From assembly GCA_000004695.1 (NCBI GenBank), contig CM000154.2, positions 1,696,001-1,760,000 on the forward strand: DNA of 64,000 nt, read 5' to 3'. The DNA is from Dictyostelium discoideum (Eukaryota). Under the pieces are notes generated by a model, which saw only the letters and a program-made list of their open reading frames with translations, had not been told where the DNA came from and did no database searches. This document shows, piece by piece, positions 3,905-18,213 of this stretch (position 1 is the stretch's first letter; each line of letters opens with the position of its first letter). The position numbers were made by a program, and so were the translations under genes.

Positions 3905-4401
3905 ACAATTAAAAAAAAAAAAAAAAAAAAAAAAATCTCACGACTTAAAATGATGTCAACACTGCTTGTTCAAGATTTTTGAGAAAAAATTATAAAAAAA
4001 TAATCCAAATTAAAAATAAAATAAAAAAATAAAAAAAAAATAAAATTTAATTTTTGAAAGTGTGTGTGCGCTAGTGGTGGAAATTTTTTTTTTTTTTTTT
4101 TATTTTTTTTTTTCATCTCTCTTTACATACACTCCACTATTATTATTATTACTGTTTATAGCAATATAAAACTTTTTGTTTTTTAATTTTGTTTTTGTGT
4201 TTTTATATTTTTGTTTTGTTTTTTTTTTTTTTTTTTTTGTTTTGTTTTTTTTAGTTTAAATTTCTCAAATCAAAAAATTAAATATTTAATAAATAAATAA
4301 ATAAATTAATAAATAAATAATAAGTAATTTTGTATAAAAAAAAAAAAATTTCAAAAGGAAAAACTGTTTGTATTTACAACAACAACAATAGCAATTTAAT
4401 C

Positions 4402-5204
4402 ATGCAAAATCCAAGAGCATTAGCAAATATTAGTAATCAAGCACCTTCTTTGCAAAAACAACAAAAGAAGGCTGTTTTATCTCAACCAACACCAACAAAT
4501 ATTAACATTGTTAATTCAGCACCAAGATCTTTTTCAGTTTATACTCAAGAAACTGAACTTGAAAATGCCTATAAAAAAATAAAAGAACTTGAAGAGCAAA
4601 ATAAATTAAAAGATCAAATTATTAAAGACCAAGAACTAACTTTACTATTGTTAACAAATTCAAATGATTATAGTGACAAGTTAACAATTAAACAAACCAA
4701 TAATCGTCTTAGAAAAATTCAACAACAAAATATTGAAATTGAAAGTCTAAAAGAAAAACGTGAAGAAGACCTTTATAACAATGAAAAATCTGATATTCTC
4801 GATAAAAAATTAACTCAACATAGAATTAGATCAATTCAAAAGTTAAAAGCTGAAAATGTAACTATTTTTTATTTTATTTATATATATAAATTAATATTAT
4901 TATTATTATCTCTTTTATTAATTATTTTATTTTATTTTATTTTATTTTATTTTATTTTATTTTTATTTATTTATAGCAAGAACTTCGTCAATTGAATAGC
5001 AATAATTCAAAAGTAGTTAATGTTAATATTGTTAATGAGGAGCAACTTAATCAATCATTACAAACAATCACTGTTTCATCACAACCACAACCACAACTAC
5101 AACTACAATCACCAACACAAGTTGAACAATCAAAAAGACCAATTTATCAATATGATTTGGATTTCGATTATGGTATGGATAATCAACACGTAGGTGAATG
5201 TTGA
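4402..5204 (+). CDS. Hypothetical coiled-coil protein (2 exons)
   Basis: An ATG at 4402 gives MQNPRALANISNQ... Exon 1 is 4402..4857 with a GTAACT donor at 4858. A 119-bp AT-rich intron carries (ATTTT)n. The acceptor AG is at 4975-4976, and exon 2 is 4977..5204, in frame (…KLKAEN|QELRQLNSNNSKV…). Heptad-like charged repeats are present (ELENAYKKIKELEEQNKLKDQIIKDQEL). Confidence 0.5.
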
Positions 5205-8314: not shown

Positions 8315-9492
8315 CAATTCAATACGATTTGACTTTGCAATTTATTGGAATTGACTTTTTTTACATTAAAAAAATTATAATAATAAAATTAAAATATTAT
8401 GGTGGTTGTGTTGACTGGTGGATACTTCATTGTAGTAAAAAAAAAAAAAAAAAATTAATTCAAAGGATCACAAACAAAATTAATATTTTTTTTTTATCAT
8501 AATTAATTTCCATAAGCTTACCAGTAATATTGGTGTGTTTTTGTTCCATAAAATTAAAATAAAAAAAAAAAAAAAAACTTGTAGCATTATTTTTTAGTAT
8601 ATTGTGGGATGTGTGCTTTGATCAGTTCAATTTAATCAAAATCATATAATATTGTATAGTGTAGTGTAGTTTTTTTTTTTTTTTAAATTTAATTTAATTT
8701 TTCCCACTGCGTTGTTTCTTTTTTTTTTTTTTTTTATTTTTTTAATTATAATAATTAAAAAATTTTTTTTTTTTTTTTGGTGTGCTTTTTTTTTTCTTTT
8801 TTTTTTTTTTATAATAATAATAATAATAATAGTAATATTATATTTATATATATTTTTATAATTATAAACCAATACTAATAAATAATAAATCCAGTTTTAG
8901 ATAACTATAATAAATTATTTTTATTTTTTTAATTTTTTCCAGGTTTCAAAATATTTTTTTTCAGGAAAATAAAAAAACAAACTTAATTGGTTGGAATTTT
9001 TTTTTTTTCCAAAAATCTAATAACTCAAACAGTTTAATATTATTTTTATTTTTTTTTTTTTTCTAGAGAGGTAATTATATTATGGATCTATTTATTGCTA
9101 TTATTAACTTCACACTACACTATTCAAGATTTAAATAAAAAAAAAAAAAAAAAAATTTAAAAAAAAATTAAATTAAATTAATTAAAAGTGTGGTGTGATT
9201 GTTTTTGTTTTTGTATTATTTATTTTTTTATTTTTTTTTTTTATCCAAAAAATAATAAATTAAGTGTTACCATGTCATATAAACCCAATAACCACTCAAT
9301 TTTTCACTTTACAAATTTACAATAAATTAATTTACTTAGTTTCCTCTTTATCACTACTCCAAATTATTATTTTATATAAAATAATATTCACACCCCCCAC
9401 TCAAAAACACACATAAAATTATTTATATCACATAAATTTGTTATAAATACAATAACTCAACCATAATAATTTTAATACCCATTGCTTTTTAA

Positions 9493-9496
<4 letters not shown>

Positions 9497-9529
<33 letters not shown>

Positions 9530-9553
9530 TATTATTATTATTATTATTATTAC

Positions 9554-9616
<63 letters not shown>
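9497..9616. repeat. (ATT)n microsatellite (~40 units, two ACT interruptions)
   Basis: tattattatt... run from 9497 to 9616, followed by T-rich low complexity. Confidence 0.9.
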
Positions 9617-9617
<1 letters not shown>

Positions 9618-10212
9618 TTTCTTTTTTTTTTTTTTTTTATTTTTATTTTTTCTTTTTTTATTTTCCAATATTTTTTCACCTTTTTTTTTTTTTTTTTTTT
9701 TTTTTTCCTCATTATTTTTTTTTTTTCCAAAAACCAACATGTTCCAATTTTGATCATTAATAAATATTCATAAAAAAAAAAAAAAAATATATTATTTCTA
9801 ACGACCAAATTTCATTTATTTATTTATTATAGATGCCCTTTTAATCAATTAAAAATAATATAAAAAAAATTAATTTTTGTTTGTGTCCTTTGTTCCTTTG
9901 TTCCTTTGTTCGTAAATTTGTGTTTAGTAATTGTGTTTTGCTTGTGTTTGTGTTTTTTTTTTGTTGTCTTTGTAATTTTTAATTGTCATATTAGTAGCCA
10001 AAAATAAAATAAAATAAAAAAAAAAAAAAAAAATAAAAAAAACAGAATAAGTCCAAAAAAAAAAAAAAAAAAAAAAAAAAGTATAAGTCCTAAAAAAAAA
10101 AAAAAAAAAAAAAAACAAAAACCTTGTGTAAAGCTTTTTGTCATTATTTGCGTGTGTAACTTTCTATTTTTGCAATAAATTTTAAAAAAACAAATACATA
10201 TCTTTTTATAAA

Positions 10213-10385
10213 ATGTCTGCTGCCGTTGTTAAGCCATTCAAAATTTTTAATGATTTTGAAAATAAAGAAAACATAGATCCTTTGACTGGAATATGTTCAA
10301 ATACAAAGCCAAACATTTTCACATCAAAAAAAAGAGTTCCACTCAGAGATATAACTCCTGTTACAACTGTAAGATATTAATAGAA

Positions 10386-10421
<36 letters not shown>

Positions 10422-10703
10422 TATTCAATTTTTTTTTTATACTAATTTTATTTTATTTTTTCTCCAAATATATTTTTTTTTTTAATATAGAAATATCCAA
10501 CGTCACCAAAAAAATCAAGACAAGTCGCTGTTGATTTAGCTTCTAATTATATCCCACCTGTTTTCAATTTGCAAATTTCATCCAACGTTCCAGCAACTAA
10601 AAAACCAATCAATAATGGTTTCAATTTTATTAATGGAAACTCAAATGGTAGTTTCAGTATCTATCATGATGTTCCAACTTCATCTGTTAAAACAATTAGA
10701 TAA
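10213..10703 (+). CDS. Small hypothetical protein (122 aa, 2 exons) with KEN box, RxxL destruction box and a TSPKK CDK site; securin-like APC/C-substrate signature
   Basis: Exon 1, 10213..10368 (52 codons): MSAAVVKPFKIFNDFENKENIDPLTGICSNTKPNIFTSKKRVPLRDITPVTT, with a GTAAGA donor at 10369. Exon 2, 10491..10703 (acceptor tatAG at 10489-10490): KYPTSPKKSRQVAVDLASNY...VKTIR*. It was missed by the ORF track because each exon is under 60 aa. The phases are consistent (156 + 213 nt). Confidence 0.45.
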
Positions 10704-12547: not shown

Positions 12548-13021
12548 TTAAGGAGTTCTCATTCCTCATCTAAAAATGATATACTCTCTATCCCTGTAGA
12601 GTTTGTTTGGGGATACTCTTCAAAATTTATTTCAACAATATACTGCAATAGTTATTTAATTATATTTGTGAAATAAAAAAAATAATAACAACCACCCCAT
12701 TAAAATAATTAGAGTATCCCTAAGAGAACCTGATTTTTATTTGATTTTTTTTTTATTATTATTATTTTTTTGGTGAATCGGACAATAATACCATTTTATT
12801 TAGTTATAAAATAAAAAAAAAATAAAAAAATAAAAAAAAAAAGAACAATAGACTCATGAGTTAAAAAAAAAAATTATAAACTAAATATTTAGTTTCTTAT
12901 AATTATTTAATTTTTTTTTTATTTTTTTTATTTATTTTAAATAGTAAATTTATATGTATTAAATATATGTATATAGGTATTTATATGAATGTATATTATA
13001 GATAGAGATTATTTTTATTAT

Positions 13022-16000
13022 TTAAAATAAGAATAATTCTTTTTTAATACCTTCTCTCTTCCAAGCTGGAATCTTTAACCATTCAGTTCTAGTCATTTTG
13101 AAAACTTTTTCAAAATCTTCATCATTGAGATAAGTATCCAATTTAGTAGAGTCAACGCCAGCAGGTAATGGATCGGCCAATAACTCTTCATAGGTATAGA
13201 TTTCTTTGAGATAATCTTTAAGTACTTGTTCAACTGGGATACCATCTTTTTCAACCAAAGGTAATTTATTCTTTGGATATTTAGAGGTACACCAAGCACG
13301 GAAATAACTTTTGAAACCAATTGGTTCTTCGAATGGAGTTGCAATTAGTACTTTAGTGTGCTCTTTTGAATGACCCAATTTTGAAGTTTCAATAAAGTTT
13401 AATACAACTTCCATAGAGGCACGTTTAGTACGATGAGTTGCACGACTACCAATCCAAAGGTAAATATGACTTTGTACATCCAATATACAAACGGATCCAA
13501 TATCTAGATCATCTTGAGAGAATGGTGATTCCTCTGTAACTTCAACGATACCCGATGCATTACTACAAACAAAGAAACGTGGTTTATAAGTGAATGAGGT
13601 TGGAATTGAACTACTTTGAATCATAATATCATTAAAGTATTTTTGTCTACCACCTGTACTTTCAAAAGCTGACCAAAATTCATTGGATTCACTACCTTCT
13701 TTTAAGATTTCGATTGGAGCTGAAGTGGAATTGAAATTCTCTGCGATTGAGAGAGCAGAGTTTTGTTCAGCATCCAATGAGAATTTACCATGCCAAATGT
13801 AAATCTTTTCAGGAGTACGCAAGATTGAAACATGTAAAGTATTTAACATTGAGCTTGAGAATTCTACTTGAACGGCACGAATATCAATTTTATCTAAACC
13901 TTTAACTTGATAGAGTGATGGTTTCTTTGGATCATAGTTATTGTATTTACCTTTATGAATTACCATTTTGGTTTTGAAAAGATTTAAAAAGTTTTTACAT
14001 TCTTTATTTGCAACTACTCTAGTTTGAACACAAGCACCAACCAATGATTCATTGAGATCAACTGTTAAATAAGCGGAAGTACCTTTTTCATTGATTGAAG
14101 AATCTCTACCTAAATAATAATAGATAACATGAGCTTCCTTATTATTTTGCATATAGGTATAGAGAACGATATAACTATCTGATGAAAAGAATTGAGAATA
14201 TAAATGTTGTGGATGATCAATCTTTTCATAGTCTTCAATTTTCCAAACTTTAACACGACCACCTTCATCAATTGGTATTGTGAATAAGGCTTCATTATCA
14301 ATGAATGGAGTTGTCATACGTGATGCCAATGTTTCAATTTTATGCTCAACCTTTGAGGTTGCAACATGACTTTTAATCTCTTGACGAGTGGTTGAAATTG
14401 GCAACATACCTGGATAATTTGCAAATTTCTCTTTGAAGAGATTATTTTCACCAAATTCGGTTAATCTTGTTATCTTTGTCCAATCTACACGATCTTTTTG
14501 AGCTTGTAATACCAATGCAACTTTAGTTGCCATTTTTCTTTGAATTGATGATGATTCTTTACCAACCCAAACAAAGATTTCAGTGACACAATCAACAACA
14601 TATACAAATTTAGTATTGAGAATTTCTTTATTTGGTAATTTCCAATCAGTACCTTCCCAAGCTAAACGAGCACGTAATGAATTCTTTTTAACATCTAAAC
14701 CAACACGATAAATTGTAGTTTTAATTGATTCAGTATCTTGTTCCTCTGGAGTTGGAGTTGTTGCGATTGGATCGGAACTATTACCACCTAAAATTTCCCA
14801 AAAATCAAATGATTGTTCATCACGACCTTGATCCAATTGAATTAGTGTTGATTTACCACCTCTTTCTTTTGTACGAATTCTATTTGCAAAATCTAATGCC
14901 TTTGCTTTATTGACACGACTTGTTTTTGAACCTGCCCAGACGAAAATTCTTGGACCAGCATCTAAAATAAAAGAGTTATGACAATTCAATGATGATGTTG
15001 ATAATTTAACCATTCTAACTCTAATCTTTCTTTTACCTTTAACTTGAATTAAAATCTTTTGTTTACCATTTTTAATTGCTGTTAAATCCAAATAACGTGT
15101 TAAATCATCAGCTGATGGATCCAATAAATTACCATTACTACCAGATGATGGAATTGATGATGATGATGGTAATGGTGAGAGTACTTCTTTTTCATTGATA
15201 CCGAACATTTTAATGATATCAATTGAACGTTTTCTTGCAGCTTCCAAACCATCGATCCAACGAGTACAATCATCAAATTCTGCTGTTGGTGCGATTGTAC
15301 GGAAATTACAAACTACTTGATTCATTGAATCATATAGAGTGAATTCATTTGGTGAAATCTTTTTAATTAATGAAATTGAAGATAATTGGATTCTGAGCTC
15401 TGGTGTTGTTGATAGTTTATTACGTGATACAAATAAATCCTCTGCTAATAAGGCAACAAAACATTGACCCCACATTGAAAAGATACCAGGTAATTTTCTT
15501 GATAATTGACCTTCCAATGGTTGCTCTTCTTCCTCTTCTTCAACACCCCCTTCATTGGTATTTGATTCGTCATCACTCATTGGTGAACTAATTAATTCAT
15601 CCATTGTTGAAGCTCTTGTTAATACTGATTTTGGTTTAGTTTCACCTGAACTCTTTAGATTTTGACGTAATACTGATAACCATGATCCACGTTCTTCTTT
15701 GGTTTTTGCTAATAAATGAATGATACGATTTGGTGTTGACAATTGGAAACTAAAACCTTGAATTGTGAAAATTTCTTTGGTTTTATGTGCAGAGATTGCT
15801 TTCTCCAAATGAATAGTCTCTAATGGATCCAATTGTTTCAATGATTTATTCTTGTATGAATAAAGCATACCCTCTGAAACTACATACCATTTCTCTGTAT
15901 TTGAATTCCATAATAAACCTGGTATTAATTCTGTTAAATTACCTTCAATTACAATATCACTTTGTTTAATACCTGTACTTGAATTTAATGGAGTTGATGA

Positions 16001-18213
16001 TGTTGAATTGTTTGCTCTTAATGGTGGTGGTGTTGAAGAAGAAGATGTAGTGGTGGTGGTGGTAGTAGTGGTAGTGGTGGTTGATGAAGTTTGAGCAATT
16101 GATAATGGTGATGCAAATGTTGATGGTGGTGTCGATGTTGATGATGATGGTGATGGTTTTGAAAATCCACCTGAACTTTTCAATGATGTATATGATGGAT
16201 TTCTTGATAATACACTATGATGTCTAGTTTGAGTTGGTGTTGATGATTTTGGTGTTGTTGAATTTGGTGATTCGCTACCTTGTTGTTGTTGTTGTTGTTG
16301 TTCTTTTGGTGATGGTACAGAGAATTTTTGTAATGCATTTTTATTTTCAGATATAACCATTGGTGATGGTGCAACAGGTGTTGTATTAACTAAATGAAAT
16401 TCACCCATTGTTGGTGAAACAACAGATTGATCAACTTGTTGTTTCATTTCTCTATAAGCATTAATTGATTGACACCAAGCATCTCTTTGTTTAACAGTTG
16501 AACATTCCATTCTATGTTCTTTTCCATTTAAAAGTATAATATTGAAACGTAAAGACCATTCCTCACCAGAGGTATTTTCATCTTCATCATAAATGTCAAC
16601 ATATTTTATATTTAAGACTGGTGAATCCCAAATTGCTTGAGCAGAATCTTCATTTAAGAAACAATAAATTTTATCTTTTACAATCTTTAAATATCTATTC
16701 TCATAAGAATTAAATAACCAACCTTCAATTTCTTGTTTAACAATACCTTCAGTAATGAATGGTGAATCACCGCCATTACCATCACCATCGCCACCACCAC
16801 CACCACTACCACTATTACCAATTGAAAGTTTTGATAATTGTTCTAATTTATCTTTTTCTTTACTTTTACCACCTTCTTCTTCTGATACTTCATAAATTGA
16901 TTGAACTCCATCTGGTTTCATTGAGATTGTGTGTGGAATAACTTTTAATTGTTTATCAGCGAACCAAAGTGAGCAATCTGTAGTTGGATCACCAGATGGG
17001 CAAGGAGGGAAAATATCTTCTTGGAAAAGTTGTGATTTTCTTGGACACATAAATGAAACCATTTCAACAGAATTTGCAGCAGTTAAACGTAAGAATCTAT
17101 CGATTTCACAAATGTTAACATCGACAACACTCTTTGGTAATAGGGTGATAGCACTTTGAGTGACATTACCAAATGTTGCTTTACCAATATGATGAGCGTT
17201 ATTCTTTTCAATTTCATAATAATAGATACCATCACCTTTACCGCCTAAATAAACCATATTGGTACCGAAATCATAATAAGGTGATAGGATTGAAGAATCG
17301 GTTGTAACATCTTTTGAAACCAATGGTTGTGAAGATTGTAATTGACGTGGATCCCAAAGATATAATTGACGTTGTGCACTTTTATTTGCGCCAACAGTAC
17401 AAATCAATTCTAAACCATTTGAATCAGCCCAACATAATTTAAATCCTTGTGCACCTTCGTGAGTTGATATAGTTTGAATTGGTGTTGATTGACTTCTTGG
17501 ATCGTATAATCTCATTTTCTTATCCCTTGATGAGGTTGCCAACTTGTCACCACCACTCCAAGTATTCCAACCGACAGACATAATCAAATCTTCATGTCCT
17601 GTTAATTTTTGAATCACTGATGATTGTTCACCTGTGCTTGATAAATCCCAAATATCCAATGTATAATCCAATGTTGATGACATAAATAATGAATCCACTG
17701 ATGGATGAAAATAAACACCTGTAACTCTTTTTTGTTGTTTTGGTAATGTAATCAATGGTGTCACTAAATTATCCTTTATCAATCCTTCCTCTGGCACTTC
17801 CCATATCTTTATCGTACAATCTCTACTACCAGTTGCAATAACATAATCATTAAAATTACTAAATTCAAAACATGATATTGGATCTGTATGTCCTTTAATA
17901 CAAAATGGTGTATCTGGTACTTTACCATGATTACTTAATTTTGTAATTGATAAACATGATCCACCTAAATAAATAAAAATAAAATAAAATAAAAATATTA
18001 ATATATTTATTTAATTATTTAATTATTTATTAATACTTTACCACCAATTGAAGAAGGATAAGCAAATAAACTTTTTGAAGATTTTAAAAGTTCTTCAGAT
18101 GCTGAATTAACTTTTAAATTTGTATAAAATAATTCTTTTTTACAAACTTTGCTAAATACATTTCTTACTTTTGATTCCCTTACAATTGATTTTTCAATAC
18201 TTTTATATTCCAT
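13022..18213 (-). CDS. vilA: Villidin (coronin-like WD repeats + PH domains + gelsolin repeats + villin headpiece), 1704 aa
   Basis: Exon 1, 18042..18213: MEYKSIEKSIVRESKVRNVFSKVCKKELFYTNLKVNSASEE...SSIGG, which looks like a coronin N-terminus, with a GTAAAG donor. Exon 2, 13022..17964 (acceptor AG at 17965-17966): GSCLSITKLSNHGKVPDTPFCIKGHTDP... It carries coronin-type WD repeats, PH-like segments, gelsolin/villin segments and a C-terminal headpiece KLPAWKREGIKKELFLF*. The total is 5115 nt, i.e. 1704 aa, which matches the villidin architecture as I recall it. Internal poly-T/S and poly-Q tracts are present. Confidence 0.9.

Follow-up and report, generated by a model that had tools for sequence, protein, structure and literature searches.

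[quoted passage not shown] This question is raised by DDB_G0288575, a gene of Dictyostelium discoideum on the forward strand of the window (the whole 64,000-nucleotide stretch of D. discoideum DNA that was analysed, 21.7% G+C). An earlier note, made from the letters of this DNA, had described the locus as an unannotated-looking two-exon gene whose product bears a KEN box, a D-box and a CDK site, and had likened that product to securin and to some CDK inhibitors, which were held to be too divergent to be found by sequence similarity.

The gene runs from ATG to TAA at 10213..10703 (+) and encodes 122 residues. Exon 1 (10213..10368, +; 156 nt, 52 codons, 31% G+C) encodes residues 1-52 and carries an ABBA-type motif, the KEN box and the D-box, whereas exon 2 (10491..10703, +; 213 nt, 31% G+C) encodes residues 53-122 plus the TAA stop at 10701-10703. 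Between them lies a phase-0 intron of 122 nt (10369..10490, +; GTAAGA...TATAG) with 9% G+C, and the start codon at 10213 stands in the context AAAATG. The exons, splice sites and stop lie exactly where the earlier note had placed them and the product is the same string of residues; either exon alone gives less than 60 aa in the list of open reading frames, as had been said. The gene is, however, already annotated: the spliced translation is an exact match to a public 122-aa protein (XP_636650.1 / Q54IR4), which is listed under DDB_G0288575 as a "hypothetical protein". Longer models of 172-173 aa from other D. discoideum strains, in which the VKTIR end is replaced, were set aside. We prefer the 122-aa model because their extra exon is absent from the + strand of the window and because the Ile-Arg end is conserved across species. 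A literature search returned no paper on DDB_G0288575 or on the motif strings KENIDP, VPLRDIT and NKENIPP, a word-indexed single-sequence protein search with the product retrieved only the protein itself, and Pfam assigned it to no family even at E<=10.

Orthologues are present in other dictyostelids. D. citrinum, D. firmibasis, D. dimigraforme and further D. discoideum isolates have near-identical proteins (96-99%), and an exhaustive HMMER search retrieved F1A5R2 from D. purpureum (91 aa, 51% identity) and A0A151Z762 from Tieghemostelium lacteum (104 aa, 47% identity); among the more distant dictyostelid species compared, whole-protein identity is only 45-51%. The reading frame is kept in four close Dictyostelium species, in D. 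purpureum and in T. lacteum, and a single phase-0 intron directly follows the D-box in all five species whose DNA was read (D. discoideum, D. firmibasis, D. dimigraforme, D. purpureum and T. lacteum). Between D. discoideum and either D. firmibasis or D. dimigraforme, the exons are 90-94% identical, compared to 36-40% for the intron and 44-62% for the flanks. The codon differences in these two comparisons are 14 synonymous to 3 non-synonymous and 25 to 2, or 39 to 5 when summed. Because the frame and the intron are conserved, the exons are far more alike than the intron, and synonymous changes far outnumber non-synonymous ones, we conclude that the gene model is sound and that the protein is under purifying selection. 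The splice of 10368/10491 is likewise supported by comparison with other species.

A conserved block also lies upstream of the gene (CAAAAACCTTGTGTAAAGCTTTTTG..ATTATTTGCGTGTGTAA; 10116..10175, +). It is nearly invariant in D. firmibasis and D. dimigraforme, whereas the surrounding A-runs diverge, and it can be recognised in D. purpureum as TTGTGTAAAACTTTTTGT...TTTGCGT. This block is probably a promoter or 5' UTR element. Upstream of DDB_G0288575 no E2F-type element was seen, only the conserved TTTGCGTG-containing block. The gene neighbourhood is kept with D. firmibasis and D. dimigraforme only; synteny is kept neither with D. purpureum, where TAF6 lies downstream, nor with T. lacteum.

Within the protein, the invariant dictyostelid columns fall into four islands, namely F9/I11/F12, K18 to G26, K39 to T48 except V42, and I121/R122, with M1, S2 and N78 in addition. 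Outside these islands, the dictyostelid orthologues differ in both sequence and length. AlphaFold2, run on an alignment of 25 sequences, predicts neither helix nor strand (pTM 0.20, mean pLDDT 64.8, with the peak over the D-box). The protein is thus read as disordered, as had been proposed for its remainder, and the KEN box and D-box appear as islands in a fast-evolving chain.

Each of the four islands fits a defined APC/C ligand motif, for which the published consensus is Fx[ILV][FY]x[DE] for the ABBA motif, KEN with N at -1 and P at +3, RxxLxxI for the D-box, and an IR tail (PMC5717348). The first island is an ABBA-type motif, FKIFND (residues 9-14; 10237..10254, +), which reads FIIFDE in D. 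purpureum and FLIFNE in T. lacteum, giving the pattern F.IF[ND][DE]; similar motifs, FVIYED in Willaertia and FAIYQD in two unnamed proteins, lie near the N-terminus of relatives. The second is an extended KEN box, NKENIDPLTG (residues 17-26; 10261..10290, +), with the KEN itself at 18-20. After a gap of 20 residues comes the D-box, RVPLRDITP at 41-49, within the longer KKRVPLRDITP (residues 39-49; 10327..10359, +), where K39, K40, R41, P43, L44, R45, D46, I47 and T48 are the invariant positions. The fourth is the C-terminal tail VKTIR-COOH (10686..10700, +). The KEN box and D-box had been recognised before, and the loss in other dictyostelid orthologues that was then named as a refutation is not seen, both boxes being invariant. 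Among 25 family members, KEN and R122 are invariant, P23 is nearly so, and the R.PL.DIT form of the D-box is found family-wide. Both the ABBA-type motif and the Ile-Arg tail had been missed by the earlier reader.

Two other motifs have a narrower distribution. TSPKK (10500..10514, +; SPKK is residues 57-60) is a full CDK consensus site at S57 and is invariant in the closest species. The CDK site claimed earlier is thus present, but the full consensus is confined to those species, with a bare TP in T. lacteum and no site there in D. purpureum. A second ABBA-type motif, FSIYHD (residues 107-112; 10653..10670, +), matches the pattern in all eight closely related sequences; D. purpureum and T. lacteum carry a deletion there.

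How often such motifs arise by composition can be judged from 200,000 composition-preserving shuffles of the product. KEN occurred in 2.3% of them and RxxLxx[ILVM] in 2.5%, and the other two motif types, ABBA and an [ILM]R end, occurred in 0.8% and 0.4%. KEN and RxxLxx[ILVM] were found jointly in 0.05%, and the full set, with ABBA and the [ILM]R end added, in 0 of 200,000. The presence of an APC/C recognition signature is supported by these motifs, and is strengthened by the two extra conserved motif types.

The signature extends beyond dictyostelids. A dictyostelid profile reached Willaertia magna (Heterolobosea) with E = 7.7e-4 against 5.8 billion sequences, and also Balamuthia mandrillaris and unnamed environmental proteins. 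A second profile, made from the KEN-to-D-box core alone without C-terminal information, returned 56 further proteins of 50-97 aa, including hypothetical proteins of Coccomyxa, Solanum, Medicago, Hibiscus, Nepenthes, Bertholletia, Xanthoceras and Puccinellia. The protein is therefore not too divergent for sequence similarity, as had been supposed, since motif-level profiles do retrieve relatives. An [ILMFYV]R end is present in 26 of the 56, compared to about 2% expected (binomial P about 1e-29, relatedness ignored), and these ends comprise 14 FR, 5 IR, 4 LR, 2 MR and 1 YR. Because the core profile held no tail information and yet recovered these hydrophobic-Arg ends, the tail appears to travel with the degrons. 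Tail and degrons occur together in Balamuthia, Willaertia, Coccomyxa and many angiosperms. Many of the remaining core-profile matches stop 5-20 residues past the D-box, as would a gene call truncated at an intron.

The layout of a KEN box, about 20 residues, a D-box and a C-terminal hydrophobic-Arg is thus found in unnamed 50-150-aa proteins of Balamuthia, Heterolobosea, green algae and land plants. Its recurring form is an optional N-terminal ABBA-type motif, [DN]KENI[DP]P.TG, 17-40 mostly basic residues, R.PL.DIT and then hydrophobic-Arg-COOH, where the stretch between D-box and tail spans 26-75 unconserved residues. Pfam gave no family match for nine relatives of the DDB_G0288575 product, and a PDB sequence search with the core profile yielded chance matches only (clumping factor B and aspartyl-tRNA synthetase).

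These observations lead us to lean toward a model in which the protein is a multivalent regulator of the APC/C, a competitive substrate or pseudosubstrate of the Mes1 / OSD1 type. The APC/C itself is likely the target, and not merely the destroyer, because the islands conserved beyond the closest species are all APC/C-binding motifs. In this model, the KEN box and D-box would occupy both receptors of one Cdc20 or Cdh1, while the ABBA-type motifs would lie in the inter-blade groove, either of that coactivator or of another. The role of the first ABBA-type motif is uncertain, because it stands too near the KEN box (3-4 residues in dictyostelids, 0 in the relative P0026) for both to bind one coactivator simultaneously. 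The Ile-Arg tail would insert into a pocket for IR tails or the C-box on the TPR lobe (Apc3 or Apc8), like the tails of Cdc20, Cdh1, Apc10 and Nek2A. Such high-avidity binding could restrain APC/C activity until the protein is itself ubiquitylated or displaced, and CDK phosphorylation at S/T-P sites may tune the restraint. The product contains 12 lysines, which make ubiquitylation likely. The proposed mode is that of S. pombe Mes1 and plant OSD1/UVI4. That the protein binds the APC/C, that it inhibits it rather than just being degraded, and that it acts at a given stage, be it mitosis or sexual meiosis, are inferences.

An important caveat is that motifs alone cannot part an inhibitor from a rapidly degraded substrate, because near-optimal KEN boxes and D-boxes are also found in efficient substrates. 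DDB_G0288575 could accordingly encode an ordinary, very efficiently targeted APC/C substrate, whose function lies in its lineage-specific C-terminal part, for example in YIPPVFNL, and whose tail and ABBA motif set early, checkpoint-resistant destruction as in Nek2A and cyclin A. We consider this rather unlikely. In its favour, the degrons match the substrate consensus, the lysines are in place, and the Met-Arg tail of Nek2A and the ABBA motif of cyclin A serve timing and not inhibition (PMC5717348). In addition, a [YF][IL]PP[VA]FNL stretch is common to D. discoideum and D. purpureum, and in the closest species the whole protein is 96-99% identical with few non-synonymous changes. However, no island other than the APC/C motifs survives to T. 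lacteum or beyond, the 26-55 residues from D-box to tail have no motif in common in the members from other lineages, and the conserved effector domain that is normal for substrates is absent.

The reading of the earlier note, that the protein is securin-like, would make it the missing dictyostelid securin, degraded by the APC/C and binding and blocking separase. It does resemble securins (PTTG1 / Pds1 / Cut2 / Patronus) in being short and disordered, with an N-terminal KEN box and D-box as APC/C degrons. The slot for a dictyostelid securin is also open, because a dedicated survey of D. discoideum and Polysphondylium pallidum detected separase in them but no securin (bioRxiv 10.1101/2024.01.07.573240, Suppl. 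Table 1), and Dictyostelium separase is regulated together with mitotic genes (PMC3386910). Securins are recognised, though, not only by KEN box and D-box but by an invariant glutamate in a conserved pseudosubstrate patch, EIEKFFP in human (PMC6690013), and by an LPE-type motif downstream of that patch (PMC6858450). The DDB_G0288575 product has no glutamate after residue 19, no acidic position that is conserved in D. purpureum or T. lacteum, and neither LPE nor VPE. Where the acidic, separase-interacting half of securins would be expected, its C-terminal half is basic (8 K/R, 2 D and no E after the D-box). In D. purpureum, moreover, just some 40 residues remain past the D-box, while securin extends along separase from end to end. 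The Pfam securin family PF04856 gave no match at E<=10 for the product and none for nine relatives, the conserved C-terminal Ile-Arg tail is not a securin feature, and plants carry close relatives of the DDB_G0288575 family beside their own securin, Patronus. We therefore abandon the securin label and judge this identity improbable. Nothing points to a CDK inhibitor, which had also been suggested.

Sororin, which the same survey likewise did not find in D. discoideum or P. pallidum (10.1101/2024.01.07.573240), was considered as well. It is defined by a C-terminal two-helix charged domain and an FGF motif (supplement of 10.1101/2024.01.07.573240). We rejected this candidate: the DDB_G0288575 product has no predicted helix, a basic C-terminus without an acidic cluster, and GFNF as the only approach to FGF.

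It is also very improbable, in our estimate, that the protein is a positive cofactor or adaptor of the APC/C, for instance a small protein akin to a subunit, which stabilises the binding of coactivators or brings the ligase to some site and is no brake at all. IR tails are used by the activating proteins Cdc20, Cdh1 and Apc10, and several small APC/C subunits are disordered (PMC5717348), but a protein that sits in the KEN and D-box receptors by its nature competes with substrates, and every characterised protein with a KEN box, D-box and tail (Mes1, OSD1, UVI4) is a negative regulator. Finally, chance motif matches in a functionless, low-complexity small ORF, which might be suspected given that the genome is AT-rich and rich in N, S and K and that short motifs are common, are effectively refuted by the empty shuffle result, by motifs that coincide with invariant columns among species at 45-51% overall identity, and by the conserved intron and the marked deficit of non-synonymous changes.

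We return to the multivalent APC/C regulator as the preferred reading. The protein looks like a known kind of molecule, a small APC/C inhibitor of the Mes1 / OSD1 type. To judge from the literature that was searched, it has not been described that such a protein occurs in Amoebozoa, that the tail can be an Ile-Arg variant, that an ABBA-type motif is added, or that the architecture is widely distributed. To our knowledge, no APC/C inhibitor and no securin has been named in Dictyostelium, an organism in which the G1 phase is absent and meiosis is poorly understood. DDB_G0288575 provides a concrete 122-aa candidate for APC/C restraint there, with four motifs that can be altered by point mutation. 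The evidence is all computational, and we regard the gene as a worthwhile and cheaply testable lead.

Among characterised proteins, Acm1 illustrates the proposed binding. [quoted passage not shown] FKIFND and FSIYHD fit Fx[ILV][FY]x[DE], the consensus of the ABBA (A) motif, though the first lies only 3 residues before the KEN box and the second is limited to the closest species. In Acm1, however, the A motif lies about 30 residues before the KEN box with a helix between, instead of 3-4 residues, and Acm1 lacks a C-terminal Arg tail and works with 14-3-3 proteins. No sequence similarity was detected between Acm1 and the DDB_G0288575 product.

The tail has its parallels elsewhere. The Ile-Arg tails of Cdc20, Cdh1 and Apc10 dock on Apc3 and are mimicked by the Met-Arg tail of Nek2A, and a C-terminal hydrophobic-Arg dipeptide can bind the TPR subunits Apc3 or Apc8 with no part played by the degron receptors (PMC5717348). 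Nek2A thus shares both a hydrophobic-Arg tail and a KEN box with the Dictyostelium protein. Each of these proteins nevertheless has a folded domain (kinase in Nek2A, WD40 in Cdc20 and Cdh1, DOC in Apc10), whereas the DDB_G0288575 product has none.

S. pombe Mes1, a meiotic APC/C inhibitor, is similar in overall plan. At 101 aa it is of similar size and has a KEN box, a D-box and a C-terminal hydrophobic-Arg in the order seen in DDB_G0288575, the same three elements in the same order as OSD1 (PMC3406007). Mes1 binds coactivators via its KEN box and D-box and is substrate and inhibitor at once, serving as a competitive substrate for Slp1/Cdc20 and as a pseudosubstrate for Fzr1 (Kimata et al., PMC3084671). 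Its tail is Met-Arg where DDB_G0288575 has Ile-Arg, and no ABBA motif has been reported for it. None of the profile or sequence searches from DDB_G0288575 retrieved Mes1, and the likeness is a functional analogy drawn from the published description, not a shown homology.

For the plant proteins OSD1/GIG1 and UVI4/PYM the resemblance extends to the sequence of the degrons. The features that define OSD1 are a GxEN/KEN box, a D-box and a C-terminal Met-Arg tail; in the plant, OSD1 depends on its D-box and tail, and the arrest of mouse oocytes takes all three (Cromer et al., PMC3406007). In the OSD1/UVI4 alignment (PMC3406007 supplement), the KEN box reads NKEN[VL]PP in monocots and conifers, the D-box reads R[TS]PL[RQ]DIT, the two are 20-31 residues apart, and the proteins end in ..LMSMR. 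The counterparts in DDB_G0288575 are NKENIDP, the same extended D-box form as RVPLRDIT, and ..VKTIR in place of ..[ST]MR; its gap of 20 residues equals that of OSD1 and falls within the 17-40 of the family. OSD1 and UVI4 differ in being twice as long (216-292 aa), in having an MR rather than an IR tail, and in their own conserved N-terminal MPEARDR block and helical-looking LTPxKKLLNSID..EK region, both absent from the DDB_G0288575 product.

Profile comparison places this resemblance in the degrons. With hhalign, the family aligned to OSD1/UVI4 with 94% probability over 38 columns, from KEN to D-box, and a reversed control reached 0.3%. When the small plant proteins were dropped, the value was 73% over 11 columns; all of the signal lay in the degrons. 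A non-plant core HMM gave OSD1/UVI4 scores of 5-15.5 bits, where the highest of 2,700 shuffles reached 7.1, and gave the small plant proteins 23-32 bits. In one fragment, P0035, a KENINPATG box is combined with an OSD1-type WYPRTPLRDIS D-box. The degron-limited similarity to OSD1/UVI4 could reflect either distant homology or convergence on the same receptor sites.

On the homology side, we tentatively raise a broader model, which seems to us possible but doubtful. In this model, DDB_G0288575 would belong to an ancient family of minimal disordered APC/C regulators with the layout (ABBA) / KENI[DP]P.TG / R.PL.DIT / hydrophobic-Arg-COOH in Amoebozoa, Heterolobosea, green algae and land plants. 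[quoted passage not shown] Mes1, OSD1/UVI4, Acm1 and Emi1/2 have been treated as evolutionarily unrelated, lineage-specific solutions (PMC3406007). One small-protein architecture in at least three eukaryotic supergroups would, if the model is true, challenge that view of unrelated inventions, and structural work would gain from it a natural multivalent APC/C ligand of minimal size.

The nearest relatives in plants are not OSD1 and UVI4 themselves but small proteins of land plants and Coccomyxa, such as Medicago G7ZVJ4 and tomato A0A3Q7I8Q0. These have 82-97 aa, NKENIPP, R.PL.DITHLF and a C-terminal ..FR; they differ from the Dictyostelium protein in their Phe-Arg tail and in having no ABBA-type motif, and all are annotated as hypothetical. 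OSD1 is a gene used in engineering clonal gametes, and the unnamed plant relatives of about 90 aa would be new candidates beside it. As judged by sequence, these small plant proteins with a KEN box, a D-box and an FR tail are the closest plant counterparts of the Dictyostelium protein.

The region 5' of DDB_G0288575, the two-exon gene for a disordered 122-aa protein, carries several candidate control elements. Cross-species comparison shows a block, CAAAAACCTTGTGTAAAGCTTTTTG..ATTATTTGCGTGTGTAA (window 10116-10175, 35-95 bp 5' of the ATG), that D. firmibasis and D. dimigraforme share almost unchanged and that can still be recognised in D. purpureum. Farther 5', at 9880-9996, lie a GT-rich tract (GTTTGTGTTTGTG...) and GTAATTTTTAATTGTCATATTAGTAG; T. 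lacteum has a GT-rich tract too. All three probably belong to the promoter or the 5' UTR, and no E2F-type site was seen upstream. A long simple-sequence tract of (ATT)n/(TAT)n plus a T-run occupies window 9480-9760 upstream, and on each strand it produces false ORFs of poly-Y, poly-I and poly-N.

Two other ORFs of the window were also read. A 1591-aa ORF at 13022-17797 (-) looks villidin-like: it opens with a WD40/coronin-like part, closes with a villin-headpiece-like one, and has PH-like regions and gelsolin repeats. In D. firmibasis and D. dimigraforme this same gene lies downstream of the DDB_G0288575 orthologue. The sequence read on either side of the D. purpureum and T. lacteum orthologues lacks it. 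The ORF at 4330-4995 (+), which starts MQNPRALANISNQ... and continues into a long coiled-coil-like region (ELENAYKKIKELEEQNKLKDQ...), has no significant Pfam match. Its RALANISN resembles a D-box, but the spacing is one residue out (RxL instead of RxxL).

Models from other D. discoideum isolates (P0005 and P0006, 172-173 aa) have a 55-residue acidic exon in place of the C-terminal VKTIR. This exon was not found downstream of DDB_G0288575 on the + strand of the window; the sole match is a weak one (61% identical) on the opposite strand, at 12568-12621 (-). The acidic ends probably stem from faulty annotation or from a rearrangement in those strains.

P0014, an environmental protein of 205 aa, contains a LIM domain (PF00412) and ends in ..FIR. 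Its N-terminus carries the same KEN and D-box module, NKENIDPLTG ... RKPLRDIT, and therefore the module exists also in fusion with a folded domain. Four small environmental proteins (P0032, P0042, P0064 and P0066) form a second class, with DKENIDP.(T/S)G..SP in common as well as R..VL[RK]E[IV], which is D-box-like. They end in an acidic, probably helical C-terminus (..FREL/LREL) without the hydrophobic-Arg tail, and may represent a separate KEN-box family.

In the family alignment A4 and the matches to the KEN-to-D-box core profile, KENIDP.TG hardly varies, and ..SP frequently comes next. The SP suggests that CDKs control KEN binding in many family members, but not in the D. discoideum protein. 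No published KEN-box rule in the literature examined accounts for the TG, and the KEN box of this family extends well past the canonical motif.
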